Positions 3,047 to 59,958 of a DNA stretch of 64,000 nucleotides are shown piece by piece. The number at the start of each line of letters is the position of its first letter. Position 1 is the stretch's first letter. Source of the stretch: Chiloscyllium plagiosum (Eukaryota); the NCBI RefSeq assembly GCF_004010195.1, contig NC_057719.1:2207773-2271772 (forward strand), written 5' to 3'. The notes under the pieces were generated by a model. It did not search any database, was not told the DNA's origin, and saw nothing but the letters and a program-made list of their open reading frames with translations. Position numbers and translations under genes: made by a program.

Positions 3047-3461
3047 TCAGGTGACTGTCTGTGTGGAGTTTGCACATTCTCCCCGTGTCTGCATGGGTTT
3101 CCTCTGGATGCTCCGGTTTCCTCCCACAGTCCAAAGATGTGCAGATTAGGTGAATTGGCCATGTTAAATTGCCCGTAGTGCTAGGTGAAGGGGTAAATGT
3201 AAGGGAATGGGTCTGGGTGGGTTGCTCTCCACCCTTCAGGTTCTCTGCCTCTATTCCTGATGAAGGGCTTTTGCCCGAAATGTCGATTTTGCCTGTCCTC
3301 GGATGCTGCCTGAACTGCTGTGCTCTTCCAGCACCACTAATCCGGAATCTGGTTTCCAGCATCTGCAGTCATTGTTTTTACCTTTTTGCTCTTTGGAGGG
3401 TCGGCTCTTTGTTGGGCCGAAGGGCCTGTTTCCACACTAAGTAATCTAATCTAATCTAATC
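3047..3461 (+). mobile_element. HE1-type SINE (5' truncated) with a nested Penelope-like insertion at ~3229-3385
   Basis: SINE body and (TAATC)n tail are split by the insert; TTGCTCT is duplicated around it. Confidence 0.8.
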
Positions 3462-6024
3462 AGAAAAGAAATTCCTTCTCATTCTCAGCCCTAACTGGGC
3501 AACCCCTTACTCTGAGATGATGCCTTCTAGTCGTAGACCCTCCCACAAGAGGAAATTAATTTTTCGCATCTCTCCTGTCAAGTCCCCAAAGAATGTGTAT
3601 GTTTCAATGAGGTTGTCTCTCATTCCTCTAAACTCCAATGAGTACAGGCTCGATCTACTCAACCTGTCTTCATAAGACAGTCCCTCCATATCTGGTTATC
3701 AGCTTCCCTGCACTGCCTTCAATACCAGTGTATCTTTCCTTACATACGTGGCCCAGAACTCTTCACAGTATTCCAGCTGATGTCTGACCAGTGCCTTGAA
3801 CAGTTTTAGCAAGACCTCTCCTCTCTATTTTGTTATACTCCATTCCCTTAGAAATAAAGGTCAGTGTTCCATTTGCTTTCCTATTTCCTGTTAAATCACA
3901 CATGAGGACTCCCAAATCCTTCCATGTGTAGCTTTCTGCAGTCTTTCTCCACTTAAATAAAATTGTTCATAAATTCAACAGGGAACCAGAGAGAAACTTC
4001 TTTACTGTGTTGAATAGATGGGCTCATTACCACGTGAATCCTCCAGTTGAACTTAAAGGGAAGCTAGATGAACCAATTATGGAAGATAGCAAAATATTGT
4101 GAAAGCTGGAAATAGTGGGGGAAATAACTGCTCACGGGTTCAACTCTGTGTGGAGTTTACACATTCTCCCCATGTCTGTGTGGGTTTCCTTTGGGTGTTC
4201 TGGTTCCTCCCACAGTCCAAAGATGTGCAGATTAGGCTGGATTGATCATGCTAAGTTGTCCCGTAGTTTCCAGGGATGTGCAGGCTAGATGGGCTAGCCA
4301 TGGGGAATGCAGGGTTACAGGGATTTTGGGTGGGATCGTGAGATGCTCTTCAGAGGGTATGGACTCGATGGGCCAAATGGCGTGCTTCCACAATGTAGGG
4401 ATTCTATGACTCTGTTCTATGATTCTATAATTCTTTATATATAGAACTATAAAATGATTATAGTTCTATAATTATTTCTGTGTTGTAAATGTAATGTAAT
4501 ATTTATTTAATAATTATGTGCCTGGGATAAATTTACACATTAGGACCTGTATCCTTTCGGGAACTTGAATTAACCGAGGTGTGGAATTTTCAGTCCGCTA
4601 CCTAGCACCACTGATAATTCTAAAGACCAGCATGTGCTCATCAGAATCTTGCTGAAGTTCCTGTAACCTGACATTATTCTCGATGCAAATGTAACTTAAC
4701 GAATAGAATCTATACCTTTGAAGTTAGGCACAGCGAGAGTTTCACCCACCCATTTATTAGTACGTCTCGTTGAAATTCCAGTCCTGGTCTTTATCCTGTC
4801 TTTGAGAAGATTAGCCACTTGAGTTACACATATATGATTTTGCAGGTCAATGTAAAATGTTTTTTGCTAACGGTCTTGTGGCTTTGAGTGCGCAGCGGTC
4901 GGGATAATTTGTAACCTCACTTCCTCTGTTCCTGGCTCCATATCCTGTGTGAATGATTGGATACCATGATATCATAATTCTACCAGGAAATGTGGTTCCA
5001 AATGGGCTTCATGTTTTAGAATTTTTTTTCTCCCACAAATTAATTATAATCTGGAGAACTCAGTGTGCCCTGTAGCATTCTTTGGGGCACACACAATCTT
5101 TTGGGACCTTTCTTTGTTTCATGTGTCCCATATTGTAAGAGTTACCTGCAGATATTACCTGTTTCTGAAAGAATCTTGTGTAGGTATATATGCTGTCACC
5201 AATCCCTCTTTTTAGTGCTAGTTCAGGGACTGACATGTACGCTTGAAGTCTTAGAAGGACAGGTTTGTTCTTAAGTAACAAAAAGGTATATTAGATTGTA
5301 GCAAGTCAGTAGATTGTAGAACAGTAAGGAGAGAACTACCTATTACCAGAATGCATGACTCTCCCCTAGAGATACCAAGTTAACCCAAACTGCATGGTTG
5401 ATAACAGTAGAAGTAAGACTAACAGACCAGAACAGCTACATCAGTAAACTCACTAGAACTGGCAATCTCTTTCCCCAAGACAGTCATACAAAGCTTCAAA
5501 CTTTTAGGCCAGCTGTCTTATGCAAATCACCTGCCAAACTCGGACTTCCCTGTTTAATCCATCACACAAAGTAGGCATCACTTACCACTGTCCTTTCTCT
5601 TTCCAAGTCTCTGGTTTGATAACGTCACACCAGCTTGGATACATAGATGACCTTCTGCTTGAGGATAAATGTCGAACATCTTTTGCTGTGAATTGTTGCG
5701 AATGTTACATGGATCACCATGTCCAGAGGATTTAAAAAAATTTCTTCTGAATGTGTGATAAAAGAAGATTGCTGAGGTGTGAGAAGTTGTCTTCTCTTTT
5801 CAACCTTATTGCCAAGCAGATCTGGCTTTACATTTCCCAGCCTGTGACATTGTCTTTTTGGTTGATGAGTCACCCTTGTTTTTGATGCATTTTCGAACTG
5901 GAAATTATCTGCTGGGTGGAGGATAGTAAAGAGTTCTTCCAACCATGTGAAGTAAATGATGTTTTCTTTGCTGGGAGTATTAAGACAATCTCAAACTCTA
6001 ATGTAGGTGATTTGTTTTCCCCTC

Positions 6025-6830
6025 ATTCATGGGATGGGAGTGTCACTGGCTGGGCCAGTATTTAGTGTCCATCCCTAATTATCCAGAGGGAAGTTCGGTA
6101 TCAGCCACACTGCTGTGAGTCTGGAGTCACAGACCAGGTAAGGATGGCAGTTTCCTTCCCTAAAGGACATTAGTGAACCAGGTGGGTTTTTCCAACAGTC
6201 AACAATGGATTCGTGGTCATCATTAGACTCTTAATTCCAGACTTACTGAATTCAAACTCTACCATCTGTCATGTCAGGATTCCAATCCGTGTCCCCAGAA
6301 TATTACTGGCGGCTCTGGATTAATTCCTGATGAAGGGCTTATGCCTGAAATGTCAACTCTCCTGCTCCTTGGATGCTGCCTGACCTGCTGTGCTTTTCCA
6401 GCGCCACAGTTTTCAGCTCTGGATTAATAGTCTAGTGATAATACCACTAGGCCATCACCTTCCCTTTTCAATTGGTGTGTGTTTCTGCTTCAGTGCACAT
6501 TCTCTTGAGACCTGGAAAATTGTTATCTAGCTGAGATAAGATTGGTAATAGATGTTTTGTATAATGAGGGAGGCAATGATTGCTAGACTGTTAATCCAGA
6601 GACCCAGGTAATGCTCTGGGGACTTGGGTTTGAGTCCTGCCGGGATGGTTGGTGAAATTTTAATTCAATAAAAATCTGGAATTAAGAGTCCAATGATGAC
6701 TGTGAATCAATTTCTGATTGTTGGGAAAAAAAGCCATCTGGTTCACTAATGTTCTTTAGCGAAGGAAATAGCCATCCACCCTTTCCTGCCCCTGGGCAAT
6801 TAGGGACGGGCAATAAATGCAGCCCTGACC
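6025..6830. mobile_element. Head-to-head pair of a second tRNA-derived SINE family (- copy ~6025-6460, + copy ~6575-6830)
   Basis: Shared AAATCTGGAATTAAGAG...CCATCTGGTTCACTAATGTCCTTTAGGGAAGGAAA body; more copies at ~38430-38680, ~41520-41800, ~56945-57295 and ~60820-61045. Confidence 0.7.
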
Positions 6831-9891: not shown

Positions 9892-10208
9892 GCGGCACGG
9901 TGGCACAGTGGTTAGCACTGCTGCCTCACAGCGCCAGAGACCCGGGTTCAATTCCCGCCTCAGGCGACTGACTGTGTGGAGTTTGCACGTTCTCCCCGTG
10001 TCTGCGTGGGTTTCCTCCGGGTGCTCCGGTTTCCTCCCACAGTCCAAAAGATGTGCAGGTCAGGTGAATTGGCCAGGCTAAACTGCCCGTAGTGTTAGGT
10101 AAGGGGTAAATGTAGGGGTATGGGTGGGTTTCGCTTCAGCGGGTCGGTGTGGACTTGTTGGGCCGAAGGGCCTGTTTCCACACTGTAATGTAATCTAATC
10201 TAATCTAA
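9892..10208 (+). mobile_element. HE1/V-type SINE, full length, young
   Basis: A box TGGCACAGTGG, B box GGTTCAATTCC, (TAATC)n tail, AAGAGC target-site duplication. Confidence 0.9.
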
Positions 10209-10269: not shown

Positions 10270-12266
10270 AAGACCTTGTAGTGAATGAAACCATTGAGGA
10301 GCAGGTAAGCATGCTGGAACGGATAGAGGTTGAGGAAGCTGATGTGCTGAAAATTTTGACAAACATTAAGATTGACAAGTCGCCAGGGCCAGACCAGATT
10401 TGTCCTCAGCCGCTTTGGGAAGCGAGAAATGTGATTGCTTCGCCGCTTGCAAAGATCTTTGCATCCTCACTCTCCACTGGAGTCGTACCTGAGGACTGGA
10501 GGGAGGCAAATGTAATTCCTCTCTTCAAGGAAGGAAGTAGGGAAATCCCCGGCAGTTACAGACCAGTCAGTCTCACTTCTGTCATCTGCAAGGTGTGAGA
10601 AAGGATTCTGAGGGATAGGATTTATGACCATCTGGAAGAGCATGGCTTGATTAAATGAAGTCAGCACGGCTTTGTGAGAGGCAGGTCATGCCTCACAAAT
10701 CTTATCGAGTTCTTTGAGGATGTGACTAGACAAGTTGATGAGGGTTGAGCGGTGGATGTGGTGTATATGGACTTCAAAAAGGCATTTGATAAGGTTCCCC
10801 ATGGTAGGCTCATTCAGAAGGTCAGGAAGAAATTTAGCTGTCTGGATACAGAATTGGCTGACAGAATGACAGAAGACAGCGAGTGGTAGTGGAAGGAAAG
10901 TCTTCTGCCTGGAAGTCAGTGATGAGTGGTGTTCCACGGGGCTCTGTCCTTGGGCCTCTACTTGCTGTAATTTTTATTAATGACTTGGATGAGGAGATTG
11001 AAGGATGGGTCAGCAAGTTTACAGACGACACAAAGGTTGGAGGTGTCGTTAACAGTATAGAGGACTGTTGTGGGATGCAGAGATGGGCTGAGAAGTGGCA
11101 GATGGACTTCAACCTGGATAAATGCGAGGTGATGCATTTTGGAAGGTCGAATTTGAAAGCTGAGTACAGGATTAAGGATAGGATTCTTGGCAGTGTGGAG
11201 GAACAGAGGGATCTTGGTGTGCAGGTACATAGATCCCTTAAAATGGCCACCCAAGTGGACAGGGTTGTTAAGAAAGCATATGGTATCTTGGCTTTCATTA
11301 ACAGGGATATTGAGTTTAAGAGTCGTGAGATCTTATTGCAGNNNNNNNNNNNNNNNNNNNNNNNNNNNNNNNNNNNNNNNNNNNNNNNNNNNNNNNNNNN
11401 NNNNNNNNNNNNNNNNNNNNNNNNNNNNNNNNNNNNNNNNNNNNNNNNNNNNNNNNNNNNNNNNNNNNNNNNNNNNNNNNNNNNNNNNNNNNNNNNNNNN
11501 NNNNNNNNNNNNNNNNNNNNNNNNNNNNNNNNNNNNNNNNNNNNNNNNNNNNNNNNNNNNNNNNNNNNNNNNNNNNNNNNNNNNNNNNNNNNNNNNNNNN
11601 NNNNNNNNNNNNNNNNNNNNNNNNNNNNNNNNNNNNNNNNNNNNNNNNNNNNNNNNNNNNNNNNNNNNNNNNNNNNNNNNNNNNNNNNNNNNNNNNNNNN
11701 NNNNNNNNNNNNNNNNNNNNNNNNNNNNNNNNNNNNNNNNNNNNNNNNNNNNNNNNNNNNNNNNNNNNNNNNNNNNNNNNNNNNNNNNNNNNNNNNNNNN
11801 NNNNNNNNNNNNNNNNNNNNNNNNNNNNNNNNNNNNNNNNNNNNNNNNNNNNNNNNNNNNNNNNNNNNNNNNNNNNNNNNNNNNNNNNNNNNNAAAAAAA
11901 AGGAAGAGAGGGGACCTAATTGAGGTATACAAGATAATGAGAGGCATAGATAGAGTTGATAGCCAGAGACTTTTTCCCAGGGCAGAAATTGTTAACACGA
12001 GGGGTCATAGTTTTAAGCTGTTTGGCGGAAAGTATAGAGGAGATGTCAGAGGCGGGCTCTTTACGCAGAGAGTTGTGAGAGCAGCCAGCAGCAGTTGTGG
12101 AAGCAAGGTCATTGGGGATATTTAAGAGACTGCTGGACATGCATATGGTCACAGACATTTGAGGGTTGGTACATTAGGTTTACCTCACATGAGGTTCATT
12201 GGTCGGCACAACATCATGGGCTGAAGGGCCTGTTCTGTGCTGTACTGTTCTATGTTCTATGTTCTA
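10270..12266 (+). mobile_element. CR1/HER1-type LINE, 5'-truncated, reverse-transcriptase region with stops/frameshifts; spans an N gap
   Basis: KSPGPDQI, VPEDWREANVIPLFK, SGVPRGSVLGPLL, SKFTDDTK, WQMDFNLDKCEVMHFG; (TTCTATG)n tail. Confidence 0.9.
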
Positions 12267-12359: not shown

Positions 12360-12860
12360 AGAACGGTGTGAACTGGAAATTTAAAACAAAAGCAGAAATT
12401 GCTGGTGAAATTTAGTGGGTCAGATAGCATCTGTGGTGTGAAAGCAGAGTTAACATTTCAGGACCATTGACCCTTCTTCAGAATTGATTAGTAGGAAAAA
12501 GTGGTACATGTTGCTGAAGATGGAGTGGTGCTGGTGGTCAAGGGTGGTAAAAGGATGAAAAGAATGGGTGGAGACAGAGTTCCAGACGGAGAGAAAGACA
12601 GAGAGACAAAGATATAGCTAATGAACAACCAGGGAGCCCACTATCAGCTCCCTATCTTTCTCTCCCTCTGGAACTCTGTCTTCACCTAATTTTTTTGTCC
12701 TTTTACCACCTCCAGTCGCCCTTTCTTCAGTAATATATACCACCTTTCCTAGCCATGATCAGTTCTGAAGAAGAGTGACTGGACCTGAAACATTATCTCT
12801 GTTCTCTCTCCACAGATGTTGCCAGACCTGCTGAGTTTCTCCAGCACTTTCAGTTTTTGC
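12360..12860. mobile_element. Penelope-like inverted (fold-back) remnant, variant B
   Basis: ~250-nt arms in inverted orientation, each with a CTGAAGA...GAAA core (- 12452-12481, + 12765-12794). Confidence 0.7.
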
Positions 12861-15304: not shown

Positions 15305-16140
15305 ATACAGTCAGAGTCCAACAGCGCAGAGACAGGCCCTTTGGCCCAAACTGGTCTATACCGACCAAAATGTCCGCCCACGCTAACCCCGTTTCCCTGC
15401 ACATGGCCCATACCCTTCTAGTCCTTTCCTATCCATGTATTTGTCCAAATGCCTTTTAAATGTTGTTAATGTACCCACCTCAACCACTTCCACTGGCAGC
15501 TCATTCCATATGCGTACCACCCTCTGTGTAAAAGAGTTGCCCCTCAGGTTCCCTTTTGTTCTTTCCCCTCTAACCTTAAACTGGTGCCCTCTGGTCCTCC
15601 AATCCCCAACCCTGGGAAAAAGACTGAGTGTATTCACCCTATCCATGTCTCTCATGATCTTATTCATCTCTATAAGATCCTCCCTCAGCCTCCTACACTC
15701 TATTAAAAAAAAAGGTGCTAGCTTATCCAATCTCTCCCTATAACTCAGACCATTGAGTCCTGGCAACATCCTTGTAAATCTTTTCTGCACTATTTCCAGT
15801 TTAATAACATCCTTCCTATAACAAGGTGACCAAAACTGAACACAATACTCCAAGTGCGGCCTCACCAATGACCTGTACAACTGCAATATAACTTCCCAAC
15901 TTGAATACTCAGTGCCCTGACTGATGAAGGTCAGTATGCCAATTGCCTTCGTCACTGCCCTGTCTACCTGGGACTCTACTTTCAGAGACCCGTGCACCTG
16001 AACTCCAAGGTCCCTCTGTTCCACTACACTCCTTAAGGCCCTACCATTCACCACGAAACTCCTACCTTGATTTGACTTTCCAAAACGCAAGTCCTCACAG
16101 TCATCTATATTAAACTCCATTTCTTGGCCCACTTTCCCTG
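15305..16140 (-). mobile_element. CR1/HER1-type LINE 3' fragment
   Basis: ORF 15383-16132: LYRSLVRPHLEYCVQFWSP...TRGHQFKV...FTQRVVRIWNELP. Confidence 0.9.
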
Positions 16141-16322
16141 CTGGTCAAGGTCCTGCTGCCTTATTTTAAATCCTAAACATCCTTTCCTGAGAAGGCAGCA
16201 TCAATCACCATGAACTAAATTGACCTCTGTCAATCCTGGGTTTGACTAGGTTTGTGGGGATTCTTTCTCCATGTTTGAGTCTAGCTCTGCCTGTCTGACC
16301 TTTCATTTTATTTCTTTCCCAG

Positions 16323-16436: not shown

Positions 16437-16469
16437 GTAGGTCACTATCCACTTGTATTTAAAGAATGA

Positions 16470-16716
16470 TTCGGAGATGCCGGTGTTGGACTGGGGTGTA
16501 CAAAGTTAAAAATCACACAACACCAGGTTATAGTCCAACAGGTTTAATTGGAGGCACACTAGCTTTTGGAGAACCGTTCCTTCATCAGGTGATAGTGGAG
16601 GGCTCAATCCTAACAGAGTTTATAGCAAAAATTTACAGTGTGATGTATAATTTCAGAAAGCTAGTGCTTCCAATTAAACCTGTTGGACTATAACCTGGTG
16701 TTGTGTGATTTTTAAC
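16470..16716. mobile_element. Penelope-like fold-back insertion, variant C
   Basis: Inverted arms; TATTTAAAGAATGA duplicated at 16456-16469 and 16717-16730; related copies at ~51034-51114 and ~59700-59886. Confidence 0.75.
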
Positions 16717-16884
16717 TATTTAAAGAATGACATTGAAATCGGAAAACTTGTTAAAGTGTTGCACCTGAGCTTCATGAAGCAAAATACGACACCAACTCGC
16801 ATAAGATGTTAGATCCAAAAGCTTACTCATGAAGGTGTCATCAAGGATGGAAACAGATCATTCGTCCCAACGTCTTAAAAACGT

Positions 16885-18460
16885 TGGAATACTGCGTGCA
16901 GTTCTGGTCTCCTTCCTATCGGAAAGATGTTGTGAAACTTGGAAGGGCTCAGACAAGATTTACAAGGATGTTGCCAGGGTTGGAGGATTTGGGCTTAGGG
17001 AGAGGCTGAACAGGCTGGGACTGATTTCCCTGGAGCGTCGGAGGCCGAGGGTGACCATATAGAGGTTTGTAAAATTATGAGGGGCATGGATAGGGTAAAT
17101 AGACAAAGTCTTTTCCCTGGGGTGGGGGAATCCAGAACTAGAGGGCATAGGTTTAGGGTGAGAGGGGAAAGATATAAAAGAGACCTAAGGGGCAACTTTT
17201 TCACACAGAGGGTGGTACGTGTATGGAATGAACTGCCAGAGGAAGTGGTGGAGGCTGGTACAATTGCCACATTTAAAAGGCATTTGGATGGGTATATGAA
17301 TAGGAAGGGTTTGGAAGGATATGGGCCGGGTGCTGACAGGTGGGACTAGATTGGGTTGGGATATCTGGTTGGCATGGGCGGGTTGGACCCAAGGGTCTGT
17401 TTCCATGCTGTACATCTCTATGACTCTAAAAACCTTAAAGGTTCTAAGGAGCATCTTAAAAGAACACACAGAGGTGAAGAAGAGGTTTAAGGATAGAATT
17501 CCAGAGTTTGGAGCTATGACTTCTGAAGGCATGGGTGCCACTAGTTGAACAATTAAAATGCGGGGACATTCAAAGCCACAAATAACTCGAGTCCATGGAC
17601 AGTGAAGAAGGTCATCACGACAGGACCTTGATCAGATGGGCCAATGGGCTGAGAAGTGGCAGATGGAGTTTAATTTAGATAAATATAAGGTGTTACATTT
17701 TGGTAAAGCAAACCAGGGCAGGACTTATACACTTAACAGGACGGTCCTGGGGAGCGTTGCTGAACAAAGAGATGTAGGGATGCAGGTGCATTGCTTTGTG
17801 AAAGTGGACTCACAGGTAGGCAAGGTGGTGAAGAAGGTGTTGGGTATGCTTGTCATTATTGTCAGTGCATTAAGTATCGGAGGTGGAATGTCATTGTTGC
17901 AGCTATACAGGACATTGGTTAGGCCACTTTTTGAATACTGCTTTCAGTGATGGTCTCCCTGCTATAGGGAAGATTTTGGGAAACATGAAAGGATTCAGAA
18001 AAGATTTACAAGGATGTTGCCAGGTTTAGAGTGTTTGAGCTACAGGGAGAGGCTGAGTAGGCTGGGGCCGTTTTCCCTGGAGCATCAGAGGCTGAGGGGT
18101 GACCTTATAGAGGTTTATAAAATCATGAAGGATGTGGATAAAATGAATAGTCAAGGGCTTTTTCACAAGGTAAAGGAATCCAGAACTAGAGGGCATATGT
18201 TTAAGGTGAGAGGGGAAAGATTTAAAAGGGACCTGAGGGACAACGTTTTACACAAAGGGTGTTGCATATATGAACAAGCTGCCAGAGGAAGTGTTGGAAG
18301 CTGGGATAATTACAACATTTAAAAGGCATCTGGATGGGTACATGACTAGGAATAGAAATGCTGGCAAATGGGATGTCTGGTCAGTTTAGGATATCTGGTC
18401 AGCATGGACGAATTGGACTGAAGGGTCTATTTCCATGCTGTACAGTTCTTTGACTCTATG
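16885..18460 (+). mobile_element. Two tandem CR1/HER1-type LINE 3' fragments (~16885-17427, ~17625-18460)
   Basis: WAEKWQMEFN, RLRGDLIEVYKIM, TRGHRFRVRG, FFTQRVVRVWNELP. Confidence 0.88.
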
Positions 18461-21053
18461 GTAATTATTTGGAAGTCAGAACATTCAAAATGTGCAGCTG
18501 GACCAGCATTAATCTCCCATTTCCCACGATGTACATTTTCCCTGTTTCACTGCAGTTAGATTTACATCTGTTCACCATCTGTCATCCACTTACTGTACAT
18601 AGAAAGTGAAAAAGATCTTTATTCTGTACTTGTTCCTGCTGGAGAGAACCTCCCCATCGGAATCCTTGGCTAAAACTTTGGTTTGTGAAAGGACTTTGAG
18701 GACCACAGCCCAGCGGAGGTCATTCTGACAGAGATTTATTCCTATTGGAGAGTGTCAATGACTCCACTTGGGCAGTCTGGACAAGAACTGACTGTAACCC
18801 CTGATGTAACGTGACCAACAGATCACCACCTCCAGTACACGTTAAGCGGATAACACCAGTAGAGGAGACAAAATGGACCTTAGCAAGGGTCGCCAACGCT
18901 TGTTGATATTCACAGGGCAACAACTAGGAATTGTAGCCTGGCAGCTGCACTGGCTGTTGGGGAGTACCCCTGAGGGAGTGTGGTTGAGTTTAGACTTGCC
19001 CATTTTCTATGTGTCGCTTCCTTGGGCTGAATACAGACTTGAAGGGCAGTTCAGCACAAACCAGGCAAATAGAGACTAGGTTTAGAATGGAGGTCAGGGT
19101 AAAAGATTCATGTGCAAATTGATGCCAGGATATTATACATTTTATTTTATTGTACAAGTTTAAGCAGATCTTTGAGAGTTTTGCCTCACTGACTGTTACT
19201 ATGATTTAAGCATGGTATCTTTGGGGAAGTTCTGAAGCAGGGTCACTGGACCTGAAACGTTAGCTTAGCTTTCTATCCTCGGACGCTGCCAGCCTGCTGA
19301 GCTTCTCCAGCAATTTCTGTTTTTGTATCTTTAGGGTGGCCTGAGGTGAACAGTTTCTGTGCACAGTTCAGCTCCTGTACACCGTGCTTCCTTCAATCAA
19401 ATGCCAGTATTTGTGACCTGTGCATCTACCTTCCAGAGCTGTGCTCACTCCACAGTACCATGAATGCATGCAGATTCAGATTAATGGCGGATGGAGAGAG
19501 CACTGGGCAGTAGGGAGAGAGGAAAAGAGACCAGAACATTTATATTGACCATCTTCTTTGACAATGGGAATCAATTTGTTGTGGTCAAATCCTTACTGTT
19601 GCATCCATTTGGAATTGTGGATTTTGGAGAGCTCTGTTTTGGCCTGTACAGTGGAAAGTTTCAAAGCATTGTGCTGCATCGCATGGTGATTGAGCTTGGG
19701 GTGGTTTCAGTGATGGCTTGGTGCACCGTGTCCAGTGGGGCATACCTACTGTTTTCATTTGAGAAGAAAGATCTCACAGCCTACCCCCAAATGACTTTTG
19801 GACATTGTTAATGCAATATTCAAAGAGAACCAAATGAAATGGGGCAAATAACATTGGAAAGCCAGCAGCTTTTGCACTTCCCCCTTCCACTGTTAAAGAA
19901 CCTGCGCATTACAAAGCTACCACCTTCAGAGGAGCAAAGGGAAAATACATCATTGCCTGCACTAAACCATGTCATACTAACATGGAAGTATATCACTGTG
20001 TCTCACTATCAATGCATCAAAGTCCCGCAACTCCCTCTCTAACATCAGCGGGGGTGTACCTACTCCACTGATACCCTGCAGTGCAATAAGGTGACTCACC
20101 ACCACCACTATAAGGGCAATTAGGGACAGATAATAAACATTGCCAAACCACTGACACACATCCTGTGAGTCTTCTTGAAAAGATATCTTTTCCAGCTCCT
20201 TATCAGATCTCTTAAATGTCGCAAAGCACTTCGCCGACAGTTCTAGAAATATCCGAATTAGGAGCCGGAATAGGCCATTCGGCCCTTTGAGCTTGCAGCA
20301 CCGTTCGATATGATCATTGCTGATCTTAAACTTCATGTCATCTTCCTGCTTCCTCTCCATCCCCCTCGATGGCTTTAAAATCTAAAACATTATTTGTTGC
20401 TGTCTTGAATATATTAATGACTTGGGCTGCGTAGCCTTCTGTGGAAACATTAGCCAAGGATTACTAGTGCAGTGTCATTCTCCCTACACTATAGTCAGCC
20501 CTGGTGGTCGCTTGTCAATACAGAGGGCAGAGAATTAAGGGCACCCTGGGAGCCAACTTTCATACCTCAGGATCCCAAAGCTGGGGATGAGATTTGTTTC
20601 TGGTGGTGATGGCTGAAGGAGGGATGTTGGCTGAGACACTGATATTGAAGACTTGCTGCTTCCTCTTCAAGAACATCATGGAGTTCAGGCATGGGGAGAC
20701 CTCACTTTAACAATAATCAGTTTCGCCATTCAGACCCAGCAGACAGATGCCTGCATACCCCTATTTCCACAGTCTACTGGCATTCTTGGGTGACTCCACG
20801 TAATACACAGCAGGTATTAAGAGGCCAGTTAGCTGGCTCTTACATTCAGGACTGCGGATGTGTCATTTTCACTCTGCCAAAGTCCTCATTTCTGTTCAAT
20901 CTGATGATGGGCTGCTGATGGAGTAGTGTAGAAGTCGAATATTTTCAAAGGTTTGATGTAAATTTTACCGGCTTGTAAAACCTAACGCTTTTGCAATAAT
21001 CTTTATGCAGTAATTGTCATCATTGTTATTTTGGGACCTCTCTCTCTCTGCAG

Positions 21054-21167: not shown

Positions 21168-22640
21168 GTAAGGAATTCATATCAACTTCTGCTTGGAAAT
21201 AGTCTCTCTGCAAACGGTTCATGGCCACAGATAACATGCTTTAACAGATAGGTCAGCTAATGATTTTGGAAAACTGGCTTCAGAGGTTAAATGGCTTGCA
21301 GAGTCCATGATCTTGTTGCATGACGACGCTAGCTCTTGGTGCACGTGGGGTTGGGTTCCTGGAGGCGTGGTGCTTAGCCTTGAATAGGATTGGCATTGCT
21401 TCAGTCTGGTGCCTTGTTTGATGGTAGTGCTGAATTCCTTTCCTGAAGCCTTACTAACTTCTGTTTCCTGTTTTTATAAATTGTGGTGATTGCTGTATAG
21501 GGAAACAAAATATATGATCTTCTGTGGTGGCCAGGAAAATGTATTAATATCATGAGCAGGCACCTGACCCTGTAATAAATTTGAAGTGTTTTCTTTGGGT
21601 GGGAACCTGGCTGATGTCTCTGCAGGAGAAACCTTTGCTCCTACGTGAGCTCGTCTGGGACTAATCCCATCACTTGGTAATTTTTGTTGCGAAGGCTTTT
21701 CCGGGTTATTTTACATGAGGAAGCCATCCTCTGACTGCCCTTACACCTACCTCACCCCTCCCTCAGCATCTCCGAGTGGTTAGATTGCTGAAGGTTGCTG
21801 GTTCAGTGTTGAGGACGTTGCTGAAACTGTGCCATTTGGCAGCAGAAGAAACCTGGAACTGTCTCCCCTCGAAATAGCTGGGGCAGCGAGTGTTTGAAAC
21901 TTTCAAAACCGGGAGCAGTATTCTTATTATTGCTGCTAAGGGTATTAAGGGACATACACTAAGGTGGACTTGATTATTTAAAGTACCGTTTCCCCTCCCT
22001 GTCGATCGAATTAAATGGGGTGTGCCAGGCTAAATAGTTTTGTCCTGTTGTTCTACTGTAAAGACAAGGATCAGGCGAAGAGGCGTGAGACCTTAATGCC
22101 CTGAGAACTTTGCCCTCTCTCATGGTGATGAGAAGTTAGTGTGGAATGCAGAGATCCTAAAATCCTGGAATTCCCTCCCTCAGGGCATTGTGGGTCAATC
22201 TACAGCACATGGACTGCAGCGGTTCAAGAAGGCAGCTCACCCCTACCTTCTCAAGGGGCAACTAGGGATGGGCAGTAAATACTGGGGCAGCCAGGGACAC
22301 CCACATCCCACAAAAATTAATAAAAATAAATAACTCTGAGTTCCCAGCACTGGGTTAGGCAGAGCAGTGTGTCTGGTATAACCCAAAAGGAAAAATTGTT
22401 GTACGGTTGGGCAATTTGATTGAAGCGGTGTTGAAATATGAAAACATACAATGACTGGCCTCCTCCTGAGCTCCTTCAGCCCATTGGGCCTATCCCAGTC
22501 CTTTGGTTAAAACTATCCAGTTGATTCCAATCCTCATTGTTCAGGAAAGTATTTTTCTAGAATGGTTTGTTCGAGTCTCTTTTGAATATTGCTATTGGAT
22601 CCATTGCTGTTACCGTCCCAGTCAAAGCATTCCAAATGGT

Positions 22641-22781
22641 TCTGGATTAGTGGTGCCGGAAGAGCACAGCAGTTCAGGCAGCATCCAAGGAGCTTCTTGG
22701 ATGCTGCCTGAACTGCTGTGCCCTTCCAGCACCACTAATCCAGAATCTGATTTCCAGCATCTGCAGTTATTGTTTTTACCT
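22641..22781. mobile_element. Penelope-derived hairpin insertion, variant A arms
   Basis: ~50-bp near-perfect palindrome; AGCATTCCAAATGGT duplicated at 22626-22640 and 22782-22796. Confidence 0.8.
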
Positions 22782-22994
22782 AGCATTCCAAATGGTAACA
22801 ACTTCCTGAGTAAAAGGGTTCAAGGTCTGGGGATATCTCTGCTCCTAAATTAAACAATGCATGAGGTGGTGTGGTTTCTTGCTGATTTACATGTTTGGGT
22901 CTTTCTCTAGCTGGCTTGCTTTTTGAGCTGTGGTTGCTGACTGTCCCTTTGTCTCTCTGTTTGTCTCTCCCTGCCTCTCCACATCCTCCCACAG

Positions 22995-37806: not shown

Positions 37807-37808
<2 letters not shown>

Positions 37809-37853
<45 letters not shown>

Positions 37854-38957: not shown

Positions 38958-39270
38958 TTAGATTAGATTAGATTACTTAGTGTGGAAACAGGCCCTTCGG
39001 CCCAACAAGTCCATACCGACCTTCCGAAGAGCAACCCACCCAGACCCATTCCCTTACATTTACCTCTTCATCTAACACTATGGGCAATTTAGCATGGCCA
39101 ATTCACCTGACCTGCACATTTTTGGACTGTGGGAGGAAACCAGAGCACCCGGAGGAAACCCACGCAGACACGGGGAGAATGTGCAAACTCCACACAGACA
39201 GTTGCCCAAGGTGGGAATTGAACCCGGGTCTTTAGCGCTGTGAGGCAGCAGTGCTAACCACTGTGCTGCC
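38958..39270 (-). mobile_element. HE1/V-type SINE
   Basis: Full body and tail on the reverse strand. Confidence 0.85.
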
Positions 39271-39489
39271 CTAGTCCTTCAAAGGGAGTGAGCAATTAAT
39301 GATTCCAATATCCTAGCCAGAAATCAGTGAGGTCAGACTGGAGAGTGACAGAATAGTTTGTGCTTTCTGTTATGAACCCTCTGACAGAAGGACATTCCAC
39401 TGACATCCTGCATTTGCAGAACATGCTCATTGTATTTTACCTCACTGGACTCTCAAGGAACGCTGCAAGTTCATCTTGCATCCCAGAGA

Positions 39490-42449: not shown

Positions 42450-42771
42450 GCTGCCTCGCAGCGCTAGAGACCCGGGTTCAATTCCCGCCTCAGGTGACTG
42501 ACTGTGTGGAGTTTGCACGTTCTCCCCGTGTCTGCGTGGGTTTTCTCTGGGTGCTCCGGTTTCCTCCCACAGTCCAAAGATGTGCAGGTCAGGTGAATTG
42601 GCCATGCTCAATTGTCCGTAGTGTTAGGTAAGGGGTAAATGTAGGGGTAGGGGTGGGTTACGCTTCGGCGGGTCGGTGTGGACTTGTGGGGCCGAAGGGC
42701 CTGTTTCCACACTGTAAAGTAATCTAATCTAATCTAAAGTAATCTAATCTAATCTAAAGTAATCTAATCTA
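42450..42771 (+). mobile_element. HE1 SINE inserted into the head of a Penelope-like palindrome (which continues 42772-42975)
   Basis: SINE body with compound tail; flanks rejoin as AAATAAAAACACTA|AATGCTGGAGAA. Confidence 0.8.
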
Positions 42772-45735: not shown

Positions 45736-46475
45736 GACACTCCCTTGGTACAGCATGTTGACACAGTGTGTTGGCATGACTGATTCTTCTCAGGCCTGAG
45801 TGGCTTGGCACTTGAGCACTCTGGATCAGTGGTGCTGGAAGAGCACAGCAATTCAGGCAGCATCCGACGAGCAGCAAAATCGACGTTTCGGGCAAAAGCC
45901 CTTCATCAGGCACTTGAGCACTCTGTCCAATCCTTGAATGTGTTCCTTGATTCTGACCTCAGAGGAGCATTGGTGACTGGTGACTGACACTGGAGGGTGG
46001 GTGTGTCGGGGGGAGGGGTGTGGTGGGGAGGTGGTTTGCATCCACCTGAAAAGATGGGTGTGCCCTCAATGTCACAATGGAGGCACCAATCTACATGTGC
46101 CACATTTGGCTTTGATTTAGAGTTTGCAGGGACTTGGGTGGCTGGGAGCCGGTGATGGAGAGTTTATCCTCCTCACTGTGACCGACTGAGTGCCCACAGC
46201 CCCTTCTATGGTAAAGCAGGTTCCTTTTACAAACAAACACAGAAAATGCTGGAGGAATTCAGCAGATCTGGCAGCATCTGTGAAATGAAAAGAGAGTTTG
46301 CGTTTTGAGTTCTTCAGAAGGATTACTAGGCTAAAAATGTGAACTGAGTTTCTTTCTGCTCAGATGCTACCAGACCTGCTGAGATTCTCCAGCATTTTTT
46401 GTTTTTGTTTGCGTAAAGTTTCCAGCATCCGCCTTCTTCGTTTTATTTAAATCTTCCTTTTGTTTTGTTCCGCAG

Positions 46476-48316: not shown

Positions 48317-48360
48317 ACTAGTTCTGAAGAAGGGTCACTGGACCTGAAACATTAACTAGT
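48317..48360 (+). ncRNA. Minimal hammerhead ribozyme-like motif (Penelope variant B)
   Basis: Stem I ACTAGTT/AACTAGT; core CTGAAGA; extra A; stem II GGGTC-ACTG-GACCT; GAAA-C-ATT. Confidence 0.6.
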
Positions 48361-48624
48361 TTCTCTCTCTCCAGATGCTGCCAGACCTGCTGAGTTTCTC
48401 CAGCAATTTCTGTTTTACTTCACACTCCAGTATTTAAGATTGGATGGGGGTGGGTTAAGTTGGTGATGACAAAGGTTATTATTGGAAATCCCATGTAGGT
48501 AGTGGATTGAAAGTGTAATAGCAGGGGTTCCGGAACCTTCCATTCTCTCATTGTCATCCCAGTGCTAGAAATGCCTTCTGTTAATGGTAATTGAAATTTG
48601 CATTTGAATGGTTATTGGTTTTGA

Positions 48625-48855
<231 letters not shown>

Positions 48856-51800
48856 TAACTAACACATAGAACAGGGAGAGTTCAGGGCTTGTGCCGTTGT
48901 GACCCAACACCCATTTTGTTCCAGTCCGTCTCTGACCTCTTGACATATTCAGCTGAGTGAAGGCCACTTGTACCTTGTATAATGCAACACCAGCTGGTTG
49001 AATTCTTCATTCGGAGTGAAAAGCCCCTTTGCCACCTCTGGAAGAATTGGAACCTTTTATCCCCTAACTCTCCCCGCTCTCATTATCCTCTTTCATCCCA
49101 AAGAAACTCTCAGGAATCTTTGTCTTTAAAATAAAAACATTCTTTTTCTTAATCACCTTTTGTACTAACTAAATTATACTTTATAGCATTTCGACTGTGT
49201 CAAATGTTCTTTCTATGAAATTCTTTGGGATGCTTTATAACATAAAACCTGATATATTAATGTCGTCCAGCTCATGAAGCAAATAATTGATACATTTGAT
49301 TTTTTTGCTGTAATCCTATGTGTTGGTAATACCTCCCACTTTTTACTTCAGTCCCTTTTTTATAAGTGATGCCCAATTGCATTGCCACTTTAAATGATTT
49401 GTCTTTGAAAAATCTTGCATTTCTGTGGCACCTTTCATGACCTTGGGACATTCGACAGTGTGTCATTTTGAAATGCGGTCAGTGCTGTAGTGGAGGACAT
49501 ATGGCCATCAGTTTGACTCCTGTGAGCTCTCACACACAGGGTTATCACGGCCAGGGAGTGGGCTTTCTTTTCTGAGGAAGGCTCATTCGACCTGAAACGT
49601 TACCTCTGATTTCTCTCCACAGATGCTGCCAGACCTGCTGAGCTTTTCCTACAATTTAACCTTTTGTCTCTGATTTACACCATCTGCAGTTCTTTCGAGT
49701 TTCAGTGATGGTTGAAATATGTTACATACATTGGGCTGGACATGGAGTTGAACTGTGCTGCTTGTCATGTTGCAGGATCTCTTGATTCTACTTGAAGGGC
49801 CACTTTGGGTTTTTGTTAACATTGGAGACAAAAGCTCAGCACTGCACTGGGAGTCTGCATTGTGTTCCCATTTCTGCCATGGATTTGAACTTGCTATCTT
49901 TGGACTGGGAAAGGGGAGTGTTACCTACAGGGAGCCAAGGCTGATGCACTCTGGGAGTATTCTGGAATCGTATCAAGTTGACTGCTCTTTGCATTGAGAT
50001 CTTCTGGCACACAGCATTGTACATCTTCAAAACACGAGTGTGCTGGAGACATCTCTCTCTCTCTCTCTCTCTCTTTCTCTGCCCCCTTCCCCTTCCCTCT
50101 CTCCCTCTCTGCCCCCTTGGAAAAGCAGATGGGTCTTATAGAAATGGCTTTATTATTGCTCCTTGATTTTATCAAGGCCATCATGTGACCCCCAGTAATG
50201 TGGACAGCTCTTAACTGCCCTCTAGACCACTGGGGATGGGTCACACAAATGAGCCTAGTCTGTGACACCCACAGCCCGTGAAAGTATTAAGAAAATGTCT
50301 GAACTGTTCAGGTTCTGGTCAATGTGCAGATCCTGAGCTTTACCGAACTCCTGAAGCCCAGGCTCCTCGATGCTGCACTCGGTCAATTGCAGTTTTGATG
50401 TCGAGGATGTCAGCAGCAAGATGTCCCTCAAATTGACCCTCTGTAGGGGGATAGGTCATGGATAAATCAGCTCAAGATGGAGTCATGGAACCACTGAGCT
50501 TTACAGCATTGAGACTCTTCAGCCCACCATGTCCATGCTGTTCATAAAGGCACATATTAACTTTATTCCTGATACTTGGCACTTGGTCTGCAGCTTTGTA
50601 CATGATGGTGTTTCAGGAGTTTGACTAAATCCCATGTAAATGTCTTGAGGGTTCCCACCTTTACCACAACCGTGAGCTCCAGCTACAAGCACCCTCTGGG
50701 TGAGAAAACCTTCTCTCTATGTCCCCTCTAACCTTCTGCCCCAGTAATTGACCCCTCTACCATGGAGAAAGGTTTACTTGTATTGACCCTAGAACATAGT
50801 ACATTGCAGCACAGTACAGACCCTTTGGCCCTCGATATTGCGCCAACCTATGGAACCAATCTGAAGCCTATCTAACCTGCACCATTTCATTTTTGTCCAT
50901 ATGTCTATCCAATGACTAATTAAATTCCTGTAAAGTTGGTCTATTATTACCCCGTATCATTTCGTACATCTCCACTAAATCCCTTGCCTCGGCCCTCACT
51001 GCTCCAAGGAAAACAACTCCATCCTATCCAGTCCTACCTGTTGGACTATAACCTGGTGTTGTGTGATTTTAACTTTGTACCCCTCAGTCCAACACCGGCA
51101 CCTCCAAATCATGACCATCCTATCCAGTCTGCATAGCAGGATAGTTCCAGCTCAGTCCACATCCCGGCGAATGCCCTCTGCACTCCCTCTTTAACACAGT
51201 CACAGTGTGGTTATAGTACAGTGAGTGGCTCCAACTGTGGTCAAACTGATGTTACATCTACCTCCATCCGAACCTCCCTGCTTCTGTTTTCAATGCCTTC
51301 ACTAAATGACAGCAAATGGGATGCTTGGGCCTTGGAAGCTAATCCTGGTCAGTTCAGAGGGAGATAGTTAATGTCTGAGGGTTTCAGCAGTCCAGCACAG
51401 GAAGCAGGATGTTACAGAGGAGGGGCTCAGCGGTTTTAGTGGGAGTCCTGCCTGGCGAGAGAATCCCGAGGCAAGTCCAAGTTACAGCAGGTGAATTTGA
51501 AGGCAGTTAGCCCCAAGAAGCTAAAGTGAAATGAGATTAAAACCTTTTACATTTGATGAATATTTTAAACTGTGTCCAATATTTAAATTTTGGGGCAGAA
51601 CTGGATATCACAGGAGCTGCAGAAAGATGTGGACTATGGGTTTGGGTAAAGTTGATGGTTGGAAGGTTTTTTTTATATTTACTTCCTTCTGCACTCTTCA
51701 TCTACTTAAAAAAAAACCCTCTTGCTCCTTTAGTCTATGAAATCTCTCTCCCTTCCTTTCCTCCCCTCTCTGGCTCTCCCCCTCTCTCTCCCTCTTTCCT

Positions 51801-52533: not shown

Positions 52534-52647
52534 ACATCGATGAATGTCAGACGTCCCCTTGTGCTTATGGAGCCACTTGTGTGGATGAGATTAATGGGTA
52601 CAGGTGCATCTGCCCTCCTGGAAGAGCAGGTCACAGATGCCAAGAAG
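52534..52647 (+). CDS. JAG2: Jagged exon 21 (EGF16): [38 protein letters not shown]
   Basis: ctctcaaAG acceptor, GTacgt donor, 114 nt. Confidence 0.95.
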
Positions 52648-53254: not shown

Positions 53255-54180
53255 CATAGAACAACACAGCGCAGAACAGGCCCTTCGGCCCTCAATGTTG
53301 CAATGGCCTGTGAACTATTCTCAGCTTGTCCCCCTACACTATCCCATCATCGTCCATGTGCTTATCTAAGGATTGTTTAAATCTCCCTAATATGGCTGAG
53401 TTGACTACATTAGCAGGTAAATTCAATGACTGCAGATGCTGGAAACCAGATTCTGGATTAGTGGTGCTGGAAGAGCATTGCAGTTCAGGCAGCATCCAAG
53501 GAGCTTCGAAATCAACGTTTCGGGCAAAAGCCCTTCATCAGGAATAAAGGAAGAGAGCCTGAAGCGTAGAGAGATAAGCTAGAGGAGGGTGGGGGTGGGG
53601 ATAGAGTAGCATAGAGTACAATAGGTCAGTGGGGGAGGAGATGAAGGTGATAGGTCAGGTAGGAGAGGGTGGAGTGGATAGGTGGAAAAGGAGCTGGGCA
53701 GGTCGGCAGGACATGGTTGAAGAGCTTCAGGGCAGAGGAAATGACCTGGGATTTGCAGTGGCTTTATTCCTGATGAAGGGCTTTTGCCCGAAACGTCGAT
53801 TTTGAAGCTTTTCGGATGCTGCCTGAACCGCTGTGCTCTTCCAGCACCACTGATCCAGAGTACATTAGCAGGTAGGGCATTCCACGCCCTTAGCACTCCC
53901 TGAGTAAAGAACATCTGTCTTAAATCTATCACCCCTCAATTTGTAGTTATGTCCCTTGTACACGCTGACATCATCATCCTAGGAAAAAGACTGTCACTGT
54001 CTACACTATCTAATCCTCTGATCATCTTGTATGTCTCTATCAAATCCCCTCTTAGCCGCCTTCTTTCCAATGAGAACAGACCCAAGTCTCTCAGCCTTTC
54101 CTCATAAGACCTTCCCTCCAGACCAGGCAACATCCTGGTAAATCTCCTCTGCACCTTTTCCAATGCTTCCACATCCTTCC
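53255..54180 (-). mobile_element. CR1-type LINE 3' fragment containing a Penelope-like fold-back insert (53420-53860)
   Basis: LINE ORF 53936-54172; TACATTAGCAGGTA duplicated at 53406-53419 and 53861-53874. Confidence 0.85.
53770..53797 (+). ncRNA. Minimal hammerhead ribozyme-like motif (Penelope variant A), best-preserved copy
   Basis: CTGATGA-A-GGGC-TTTT-GCCC-GAAA-C-GTC; inverted partner at 53514-53541. Confidence 0.65.
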
Positions 54181-54939
54181 CGAAATATCTGTACTTGGCT
54201 ATTCACCTTATCCATGTCCCTCAAAGGCAGCCATCTTTGCTCTTTGATTGAGCTACCCAGTTAGGTCACTTGCCCTTTTCTAAAACCTGGTCATTTTTAT
54301 TCCCTTTAATGATTTATTCTGTTCACTTTTTTTGGGAGTTTCTATTGAATTTGCTTTCCCCATCCTTTTAAACCAGGTGAAAATTTGCTGCACTTGTCTT
54401 TTATTCTCCCCGGTGTTGTGTTGTCCCTGATCGGATGTCATGCTGTACTCCCAATGCACATCACTGGCCTTTCCTCCTGACAGCATAGTCAGCTCCTGGC
54501 CATGCCTGTCCCTCACTCCGTATTATTGAGGCTGAGACACAGAGAGAAACATTTCCTGGTTATGTTGAAAGGTGAAGCAACTCCTCATAGTTTTGATGTT
54601 TCCTCACTACAAGGAGCATTGGAATAATCCGGCTTGATTCATTTCAATGAGTTCGCAATCTGTCGCTGTTTTTCTCAAAACTGGTTTCTCTGGGGGTTTG
54701 ACTTTGGCAAGAATGTGCATAAAAACTAACATTGTACATGTAAATACCCTCATTACATATGTACAGAGGGAACAGAAGGGAGAGTCTGCTGACCTGTAGA
54801 ATTGGCATTTAATATGAATGTTGCGGAAGACAAGGTGATGCTGTCTGATGTTCACCTCCTCAGCCTGAGCTTTGTTCACTACAGTTTTGTTTGTCTCCTC
54901 CTCTGGTTCAGTTGGGATATCATTGTCAATATCTCCTCA

Positions 54940-55220
54940 GAGAGTTTGATGGGGGACAGTGTGGAGGGAGCTTTACTCTGTATCTAACCCTGTGCTGTCC
55001 CTGTCCTGGGAGTGTTTGATGGGGACAGTGCAGAGGGAGCTGTATTCTGTATCTAACCCCATTCTGTCCCTGTCCTGGGAGTGTTTGATGGGGACAATCT
55101 AGAGGAAGCTTTACTCTATAAGAAACTCCCTGCTGTCCCTGTCCTGGGAGTGTTTGATGGGGACAGTGTAGGAGAGTAGTGTAGAGAGAGCTTTACTCTG
55201 TATCTAAGCCCGTGCTGTTC
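54940..55220 (+). repeat. 69-bp tandem satellite (~4 units), plus ~1.3 units at 55730-55825
   Basis: GGGAGTGTTTGATGGGGACAG recurs at 55008, 55077 and 55146 (period 69). Confidence 0.9.
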
Positions 55221-55261
55221 ATCTCTGTCTGTGACCTAATGCTGTTACTTGTTTAATGCAG

Positions 55262-55377: not shown

Positions 55378-55839
55378 GTAAACTCACAAGCACCACTTGG
55401 AGTTTTTAACGTAAGAATCAACTTCCAAAAATTAGCAGCTAGCTGGATTAATTTCTCACCCCTCACCAGTTTCGAGGGGGACCAACTTACTCAGAGCCAC
55501 TGGTCCAGAGAGTGGTGCTGGAAAAGCACAGCAGGTCAGGCAGCATCTGAGGAGCAGGAAAATCGACGTTTCAGGCATAAGCCCTTCATCACCTTCTCCT
55601 ACTCAGAGCCACCCTCTGAGCTGACGTGTCGATTATGTTGTCCTCTCTATCACGTTGCTTCACCCTAACCACAGCCGATCTGCTGCTGAAAACACTGTCC
55701 CCTGACCTTCTCACCTCTAGCCTCTACCCTATACTGTCCCTGTCCCTGGGAATGTTTGATGGGCATAGTGTAGAGGGAGCTTTACTCAGTATCTAACCCC
55801 GTGCTGTCCCTGTCCTGGGAGTGTTACAGTGCTGTCATA

Positions 55840-57829: not shown

Positions 57830-59640
57830 ACGTTTTGTGCTAAATTAGAGATTTAGATAAGTTTTAAATACCAAAAAATGGGGAAAAAATAAGCAGGCTA
57901 GCAAATTATATAAAAAAAAGGATAGTAAGATCTTTATATAAACAACGAGCAAGGCTAAAGTAAACCTTGGGTCCTCGGAGAATGGGAAATAGTAGTGAGG
58001 AAATGACTGAGGAATTGATTACACATGTTGTATCATTGCTCACAGTGAAGGACCCCAGTAATATTTGAAAAATACTGAATAATCGAGGGGCAAAAGAGTA
58101 AGGGAATAAATACAATAGCCAACACTGGAGGAAGAGTACTAGGGAAATTAATAAGGGTAAAGGCTGAAAAATCCCCTGGGCGGGGTGCATCTTCGGATTT
58201 TAAAATAAGTAGCCACAGAGATAATGGATGTGCTGGTAATAATCTTCCAGGAACTCTTAGGTTCTGGTTTAAGTCCCAGAAGATTGGGAAAACTGTCAAG
58301 GTAACATAAACAAACATTGCAGGGAAAGTTCAGCAGGTCTGGCAGCATCTGTGAAGAGAAATCAGTTAATATTTTGGGTCCGGTGACCCTTCCTCAGAAC
58401 TCAACCCGAAACATTAACTCCGATTTCTCTCCACAGATGCTGCCAGACCTGCTGAGCTTTTCCTGCAATTTCTGTGCGTGTTTCTGATTTACAGCATCCG
58501 AAGTTGTTGTGGTTACTATTTTATGAAGGTTAACATGTTTATTTAGAAAAAAGAGACAAAAAAAGCAAGTACAAATCAACCACTAGGCTTAAAATCAGCC
58601 ATTGGTAAAATGCCTGAGTCTGTTCTAAGGGATATCATAGCAGCATATTTAGAAATAAGAATTTAATCAAACAGAGTTCAGGTAGTTTTATGAAGGTGAA
58701 GTTGTGCCTGACCAATTAATTAGAATTATTTAAAGAAGTTGCAAGCAGGATAGATAAAGGGGGTCCTATAGATGTACTATAGATTTCCAAACAACATTTG
58801 ATAAGGTACCACAAATGAGGTGACTTAATAAGATGAGATCCCATGGTTTTGGGTGTAGTGTACAAGTATGAATAGAGGATTGACTGACTTACAGAATACA
58901 GAGTTGGGATGCATTGTTGGGAAGTTTATGTCAAAGAAGGCAAACCTGTAACTACTGGAGTATCGCAGGAATCAGTGCTGGGACCACAAATATTTATAGT
59001 GCATATTAATGACTTGATTGAGGGAAGTGAATGTACTGTAGCTAAGTTTGTCAATAATACAAAAATAGGCTAGTGGTAAGGATGAAATTCCCATGGAGGG
59101 CTACAGGCAAGTAAAGCAAGGAGGCAAACACTTGGCAAAATATCATGTGGGGAAGTGTGAGGTTCTACACTTTGGCAGGAAGATTAGAGGAGCTGAATAT
59201 TATTTATATGGACGAAACTGTAGTGTAGAGTGAGGCTAGACCTGTATCCTCTGTAGGTTAGAAGAGTCAGAGGTAACTGAATTGAAACATAATAAAGACC
59301 TTGAGGGGAACTTGACCACGTGGGTGTTGAATCTTTAAATATTTTTTAAGGCAGAGGGAGATTGACTCTCGATTACTGAGGGGGATGAAAGATTATCAGG
59401 GGATATGCAGGAATGTTCACAGTATTCCAGCTGTATCTGATAGTGCCTTGTATAGTTTTAGCAATATCTCCCTATTTTTATACTCCAAGGGAAAATATGC
59501 TTTCAACACCCACGTGGTCAGGTCCCCCTCAAGGTCTTTATTATCTTTCGATTTAGTCACCTCTGACTCTTCTAACCTGCAGAGGATACCGGTTGAGCCT
59601 TTCTCCTGAGGCAGTCTATTCATTCCAGGCATGAGTCAAA
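57830..59640 (+). mobile_element. Old CR1-type LINE ORF2 fragment with a nested Penelope palindrome (~58305-58525) and a terminal inverted segment
   Basis: Degenerate FDKVP and GVSQESVLGP motifs, many stops. Confidence 0.7.
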
Positions 59641-59958
59641 TTGGTGGTTGGTGGCGTTGTATTTTTTGACTGGATGGACCATGTGGAGTTTAATAATGAT
59701 GTGGAGGAGCCGGTGTGGGACTGGGGTGGACAAAGTTAAAAATCACACAACACCAGGTTATAGTCCGACAGGTTTATTCGGAAGCACTACTCCTTCAGGT
59801 GGTTGTGATGAAGGAGCAGCGCTCTGCAAGCTAGTGCTTCCAAATAAACCTGTCGGACTATAACCTGGTGTTGTATGATTTTTGAATTTAATAATGACTA
59901 GTCTTTAGCTGATTTTAATCACTGCGATGCTGACCTCCACGTGTTTTCTCCCCGACAG

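Follow-up and report, generated by a model that had tools for sequence, protein, structure and literature searches.

Minimal hammerhead-ribozyme motifs in truncated ends of Penelope-like elements, probably inert, within the introns of a shark Jagged-like gene

Scattered through 64,000 nucleotides of the Chiloscyllium plagiosum genome (NC_057719.1, positions 2,207,773 to 2,271,772; this whole stretch is the window below, numbered from its first letter) are short motifs that resemble the core of a hammerhead ribozyme, and most of the window is taken up by a Jagged-like gene. A sequence-only reading had sorted these motifs into four variants, A to D, which keep the core while stem II changes, and had proposed that several ribozyme-bearing families were once active in this shark and left sense copies inside the Jagged pre-mRNA. 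Are the motifs genuine ribozyme sequences, what elements brought them, and does their position in Jagged matter? We are confident that they are minimal type I hammerheads lying in the 5′-truncated 3′ ends of Penelope-like elements (PLEs), likely of the Neptune type, and that those in the Jagged introns are in all likelihood inert debris.

The window motifs are real minimal hammerhead-ribozyme sequences, present well beyond what chance would give: a strict descriptor that demands full pairing of stem II gave 9 matches against none in 60 Markov-3 shuffles, and a loose one gave 14 against a shuffle mean of 2.7 (maximum 8). Pairs in helices I, II and III were then counted by script in six family profiles, as MAFFT put family C out of register. 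With the 3′ strands permuted over all 720 arrangements, the mean number of pairs that hold is 27.5, whereas 48 of 54 hold in the true arrangement, the only one of the 720 to reach that number. Because the family patterns were written after stem II had been seen, the independent part of this result is helix I together with the palindrome, which were not used to define the families and in which 25 of 30 pairs hold; the families in the test are few and partly related. The CUGANGA and GAAA-N-N-U-H core elements are found in all eight subfamily profiles, the closing pair G10.1-C11.1 is either G-C or its CpG-decayed G-U form, and an extra base stands between positions 9 and 10.1 (A in families A to D, U in a further family, E). 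Helix III has no loop and consists of the palindrome 15.1-16.1, which in a genome sample of 115 matches (described below) reads ACGT in 56, AGCT in 21 and a CpG-decay product of ACGT in 30.

That stem II changes yet keeps pairing across families is thus upheld, and the lack of covariation that the sequence-only reading had named as telling against itself is not what we see. Its viroid analogy for the extra A after A9 is unneeded, although the extra base is indeed there, since the minimal hammerheads of PLEs are defined by it (PMC4209133; this and the other sources cited here were drawn on in part). The alternatives C/T and G/A in variant B are CpG decay and not covariation. One could still suppose that a chance likeness to the hammerhead was multiplied by the copying of one repeat: an Rfam covariance-model scan with E-values up to 5 returned 18 matches and no hammerhead among them, and many of our matches descend from few masters. 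Families A and C, however, have unrelated tails and nevertheless keep the core while exchanging pairs in all three helices, and the motif layout equals the published consensus of minimal hammerheads. The chance-likeness explanation, to which we give almost no weight, is largely refuted by the helix covariation. Covariation together with the published layout makes selection on the motif in active parent elements well supported.

The nature of these parents emerges from the surrounding sequence. Copies diverge upstream but end at a common 3′ point, 80-140 nt downstream of the core, and the longest upstream extensions translate into the end of a GIY-YIG endonuclease. Two long genomic A copies, L131 and L132, encode a reverse transcriptase (RT; Pfam RVT_1, E 7.8e-9), a CX4CxxC linker and a GIY-YIG endonuclease with an internal CxxC, and over 204 nt the 3′ end of L131 shares 92.6% identity with window positions 53415-53618. 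In family C the region 500-770 nt upstream of the core again contains these linker and endonuclease motifs, and an RT-like YIDD motif was seen in one of 14 further C loci. The motifs therefore belong to the 3′ pseudo-LTR (pLTR, after long terminal repeat) plus tail of PLEs, a link to RT and GIY-YIG DNA being established for A and C. Both look Neptune-type because of a CX2-5CxxC linker (PMC8557442), present in L131 and L132 for A and in L247 for C. The first in-frame ATG of family A lies about 160 nt downstream of the core.

Several points weigh against this picture. The GIY-YIG match in Pfam is below threshold (E 0.083), so that the endonuclease call is based on motifs; L131 and L132 are both frameshifted and gapped, and no intact PLE open reading frame (ORF) was found among the long copies and other genomic loci examined. 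Families B and D appear tied to PLEs solely through the likeness of their tails to that of A, and the Neptune-type placement of both lineages, likely as it is, comes from the linker motif and not from an RT tree. Most A subfamilies also carry a U.U mismatch in stem I. As to the number of lineages, B aligns with A across core and tail (68% over 124 nt), D has the same tail motif as A, and C does not align to A; A, B and D thus form one tail lineage and C another, so the window holds two lineages rather than the four independent families first proposed. PLE-type minimal type I hammerheads from several once-mobile families are nonetheless borne out, by the RT and GIY-YIG links and by the covariation between families.

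A blastn census, for which five natural copies served as queries, found 36 PLE-end fragments in the window, 19 on the plus and 17 on the minus strand, many of them absent from the first list. The host gene and the individual sites are as follows, the latter drawn from the descriptor scan, the census and helix-pair counting, with predicted folds where stated.

2434-63222, plus strand: Jagged-like gene with EGF repeats, VWC and JAG1 domain (Pfam).
3225-3383, plus: family A stub with the end of the 3′ untranslated region (UTR), core at 3257-3284 and tail; CpG decay breaks the ACGT palindrome.
6323-6421, plus: degenerate family A stub, core 6327-6354; CpG decay in palindrome, stem II and the 3′ strand of stem I.
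12386-12521, minus: family B stub, core 12452-12481; stem II mismatch, palindrome broken.
12724-12859, plus: family B stub, core 12765-12794; degenerate stem II with mismatches, palindrome broken.
16466-16717, no single strand: family C head-to-head pair; minus core 16560-16588 broken, plus copy truncated inside the motif (from 16653).
19228-19330, plus: family B stub, site 19232; A9 changed to C.
22640-22783, no single strand: family A fold-back, tail only, without core.
26696-26788, minus: family D stub with core 26757-26787, whose stem II has lost its closing pair.
27850-28041, no single strand: family A fold-back pair, each half truncated inside the motif.
31790-31914, plus: family A stub with core, stem II and palindrome intact; begins at C3, without the 5′ strand of stem I.
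32260-32460, no single strand: family A fold-back pair with its minus core at 32312-32339, where CpG decay has broken the palindrome.
37302-37433, minus: family B stub, part of the core deleted; newly found.
37714-37812, plus: family A stub, C3 and G12 mutated; newly found.
45820-45909, minus: family A stub, antisense, core 45882-45909 intact.
48317-48416, plus: family B stub, core 48324-48353; palindrome broken.
49570-49702, plus: family B stub, stem II degraded; newly found.
53415-53618, minus: family A stub, core 53514-53541; carries U17.
53759-53859, plus: family A stub, core 53770-53797; predicted monomer misfold.
55512-55591, minus: family A stub without C3; newly found.
58303-58508, no single strand: family B fold-back pair; newly found.
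59696-59889, no single strand: family C fold-back pair; plus core at 59805, C3 and GAAA broken.
63692-63871, no single strand: family A fold-back pair whose halves meet inside stem II.

All 15 positions listed by the sequence-only reading have a CTGA-N-GA / stem II / GAAA-NN-UH-like motif at or adjoining them; the strings quoted for them, on the other hand, are family consensus sequences that only four of the 15 sites match. Variant A is exact at three of seven sites (+31790, +53770 and -45882..45909) and altered at the other four, and variant B is exact at one of four (+48324) and altered at three. Neither of the two listed C cores matches the C description (both had been called degenerate at the outset), and the supposedly intact C sequence at 16656 is a shortened piece with neither CUGA nor stem II. 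For variant D the letters are as quoted, but G.G stands at the closing pair 10.1-11.1 in place of the family's G-C. Single core positions are lost in many window copies, and among the sense copies 53770 alone agrees with its family in all of core, stem II, palindrome and stem I. The B copy in 48317-48360 has a 7-bp stem I, compared with 4 bp in its family, and is predicted to fold in the hammerhead frame. Two A stubs lie between direct duplications (16 bp, 45809-45925; 11 bp, 31779-31925).

Our decay sample comprised 174 A copies anchored on the tail rather than the core, 165 of them without N near the motif; 19 copies fell into no subfamily, and the five bases upstream of the core were still visible in 75. 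Relative to the subfamily majority, the core mismatches at 51 of 731 positions (7.0%) and the flanks at 252 of 3,229 (7.8%; Fisher P 0.49), and the palindrome CpG differs at 30 of 141. A pairwise comparison points the other way (core 1.9% versus flanks 4.9%, P 0.003), and we set this contrast aside because its references had been chosen for an intact core. Inserted family A copies decay neutrally. The sequence-only reading had counted a core no better conserved than its flanks as evidence against its proposal, and within family A this is what was found. At the family level, then, no conservation of the core above neutral was detected of the sort that marks a domesticated intronic hammerhead of the RECK type.

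How the stubs arose can be approached through their 5′ ends. Among 158 A copies not bounded by N and aligned with gaps, 76 begin at -16..+3 relative to C3, 39 further upstream and 43 further downstream; 36 extend upstream by more than 24 nt, some into the ORF. Alignment ends are fuzzy, and subfamilies without upstream UTR in the references would end early, so the 5′ cluster may be inflated. Only seven copies begin at +28..31, directly past the cut site, with 7, 3 and 2 in the adjacent bins before and 4 and 1 in those after. A cleavage peak seen there in an ungapped pass (13 of 159) was rejected as mostly an indel artefact, the gapped pass giving no sharp peak, though a small one is possible. 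The 5′-end pattern fits a mostly uncut template on which reverse transcription starts in the tail, as for the lizard PLE PAc in vitro (PMC11167929), and the cluster itself may reflect either the start of transcripts or stalling. The majority of A stubs begin on the upstream side of the motif and retain it uncut, in agreement with uncut RNA as the main template in vitro.

An adjacent inverted copy stands beside 82 of the 158 A copies. Loci chosen for sequence beyond the tail frequently hold short partial tandems with cores about 250-550 nt apart, a layout that could form dimers. Five loci (L081, L087, L089, L092 and L096) are short same-strand tandems that run from core and tail to the beginning of the ORF and then jump to the 3′ end, the second core lying 270-530 nt away. 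We envision that two tandem copies would build helix III by pairing their 4-nt palindromes (ACGU or AGCU) with each other, and that the cut after position 17 would be slow and probably aided by the element's own protein. Reverse transcription, begun within the tail, would mostly halt after no more than about 140 nt, close to the motif's 5′ edge, and often fold back, leaving single or head-to-head stubs that retain an uncut motif with no same-strand partner.

The same observations could be taken to mean that the stubs form a non-autonomous family resembling SINEs (short interspersed nuclear elements) or retrozymes, which propagates itself from a short RNA template of its own, and are not truncated full-length elements. 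The clustering of 76 of 158 starts around C3 and the many short tandem units that join ORF start to 3′ end would suit it, and animal retrozymes derived from PLE pLTRs are described in a 2026 preprint (10.64898/2026.07.22.740005). We hold it to be unlikely, though deserving of some weight: the 5′ ends scatter across some 20 nt and trail off far in both directions, reaching the ORF in some copies, the junctions of the tandem units vary from copy to copy, and the 64-kb window contains no tandem array of the motif nor any intact same-strand tandem pair, as retrozymes would have.

Truncated PLE ends remain our reading, and in this genome they are very numerous. The A string of the sequence-only reading has 19,480 exact copies in the whole genome, and the A core with N7 and loop II left free has 87,506; exact counts are 351 for B and 4,199 for C, and 618 for D with CpG-tolerant letters. 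Strands were balanced and the reversed-pattern control was 0 for each string. In a genome sample of 140 evenly spaced 10-kb stretches from large contigs (1,345,708 non-N bases), the descriptor matched 115 times, compared with 1-4 in each of five shuffles. This extrapolates to about 3x10^5 motifs (Poisson interval 2.5-3.6x10^5) if small contigs are alike, or about one per 12 kb, and 15 of the 115 have a same-strand neighbour within 1 kb. Further minimal-hammerhead families, E1 and E2 (L162, L190, L199, L243, L195 and L202), have a stem II of 6-7 bp and are absent from the window; their extra base is U, and an ATG thereby falls where stem II begins, a feature shared with the Poseidon element PAc. 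As a speculation that we rate as quite improbable, the genome may hold one of the largest known loads of hammerhead motifs, its 100-140 nt stubs mass-produced by the PLE machinery from uncut RNA with a 5′ end directly before the ribozyme; so dense a load could let same-strand pairs or trans partners, together with the PLE protein, cut host pre-mRNAs frequently enough for selection to act against them in introns, and the genome would then be a natural test of in vivo cleavage by PLE hammerheads.

Against this background the position in Jagged looks incidental. None of the 36 PLE fragments overlaps the 13 located exon positions, the stubs lying between exons; one contig of what is likely an RNA run joins exons 48764-48850 and 52534-52645. 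A PDB search with one Jagged exon gave no matches. The EGF repeats of the gene are, we presume, nearer Jagged-2 than Jagged-1. The nine strict matches in the window compare with about 5.4 expected from the genome sample, where the descriptor was slightly looser (Poisson tail about 0.1). PLE ends are background, the locus itself matters little, and any 64-kb window would hold several. Single-cell poly(A) reads match the families through copies located elsewhere, show no pile-up of their ends and cover the Jagged exons hardly at all, so that they do not bear on cutting there. No significance of the sense copies in Jagged is supported, given the even orientation (19:17), a density near the genome background, neutral decay and the lack of an intact same-strand tandem; judged from sequence, an effect on the pre-mRNA is unlikely.

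Some sense copies might nonetheless cut the Jagged pre-mRNA and alter its processing, through long-range or intermolecular dimers or with a PLE protein. Site 53770 matches its family throughout, 48324 is predicted to fold stems I and II with its longer stem I, A-type RNA is probably abundant, which makes trans partners conceivable, and protein-assisted cleavage has been shown for a lizard PLE (PMC11167929). Yet only 31790 and 53770 are sense copies with both core and palindrome intact, and 22 kb separates them, each in an intron of its own. No stem I remains at 31790, the predicted fold of 53770 buries its core in other pairings (pair probability of stem I no more than 0.02), and the palindrome of 48324 is broken. 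With no strand bias in the window and no selection on the family A core, we regard such cutting as very improbable.

The window also holds other repeats. An abundant SINE-like repeat of about 300 nt, which ends in short pentamer repeats, occurs at 100-257, 634-973, 1289-1628, 3045-3192, 9892-10208, 38957-39296 and 42450-42748, the copies at 634 and 1289 being 95% identical and 655 nt apart. Many fragments of an RT-encoding long interspersed nuclear element, presumably CR1-like, lie at 10272-12125, 15383-16144, 16999-18322, 28811-29545 and 53936-54202. Between two diverging B stubs, 12550-12704 is a long purine/pyrimidine inverted repeat with sub-threshold microRNA-like Rfam matches; these matches and those at 22648-22737 were dismissed as inverted repeats, the second being the family A fold-back. 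A 69-bp tandem repeat (54940-55171, 3.3 copies) is abundant elsewhere in the genome and in reads.

Minimal hammerheads in PLE pLTRs have been known since 2014 from fish, coelacanth, Xenopus and reptiles (Cervera and De la Peña, PMC4209133), no cartilaginous fish being named in the part of that text on which we drew. The families described here share with them the CUGANGA core, the extra base 9/10.1, the G10.1-C11.1 pair, a palindromic 15.2-16.2 and a short helix I, as well as the occurrence of several consensus families per genome in mostly single and truncated copies. They differ in a shorter stem II (4-5 bp in A to D versus 7-8 bp in Schistosoma) and in the U.U pair in stem I of most A subfamilies. 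The 87,506 exact A cores far exceed the roughly 4,000 motifs reported for coelacanth and 9,000 for Xenopus, which were counted with different descriptors. In that work a tested motif did not cleave as a monomer and cleaved at a low level as a dimer, a point on low dimer cleavage that a review repeats (PMC6765202). The whale shark paper, in the part consulted, lists Penelope among its repeats, and the 2026 preprint, which looked for tandem hammerhead units in one chondrichthyan, reports activity for one of nine Xenopus dimers. Our literature search found no publication on these particular families; it lay outside Repbase and Dfam and so does not establish their absence from print. What may be new is the copy number and the clustering of stub 5′ ends directly before the core, not at the cut site.

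With the endonuclease-bearing (EN+) PLE units of the Neptune type (Craig et al. 2021, PMC8557442) the present elements share a C-terminal GIY-YIG with two cysteines between GIY and YIG, the CX2-5CxxC linker, 5′ truncation, partial tandems, adjacent inverted copies (a known PLE feature) and an optional tail; they differ in being placed by the linker only, a motif also found in Nematis, and in having no intact ORF. PAc, a Poseidon element of Anolis (Frangieh et al. 2024, PMC11167929), has a protein-assisted motif not needed for insertion, and resembles our families in its hammerhead at the pLTR-ORF junction, its tail from an internal RT start and its uncut main template. Its ORF, however, starts at stem II, unlike that of family A, and Poseidon lacks the cysteine linker that A and C possess. 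Non-LTR retrozymes (10.64898/2026.07.22.740005) likewise carry type I hammerheads in short pLTR-derived units, but form tandem arrays with a motif in each unit, whereas the window copies are single or head-to-head. Taken together, families A to D extend a class already described in 2014, a documented motif at very high copy number, in which young and near-identical tandems (L087, L089 and L092) suit dimer-cleavage assays.

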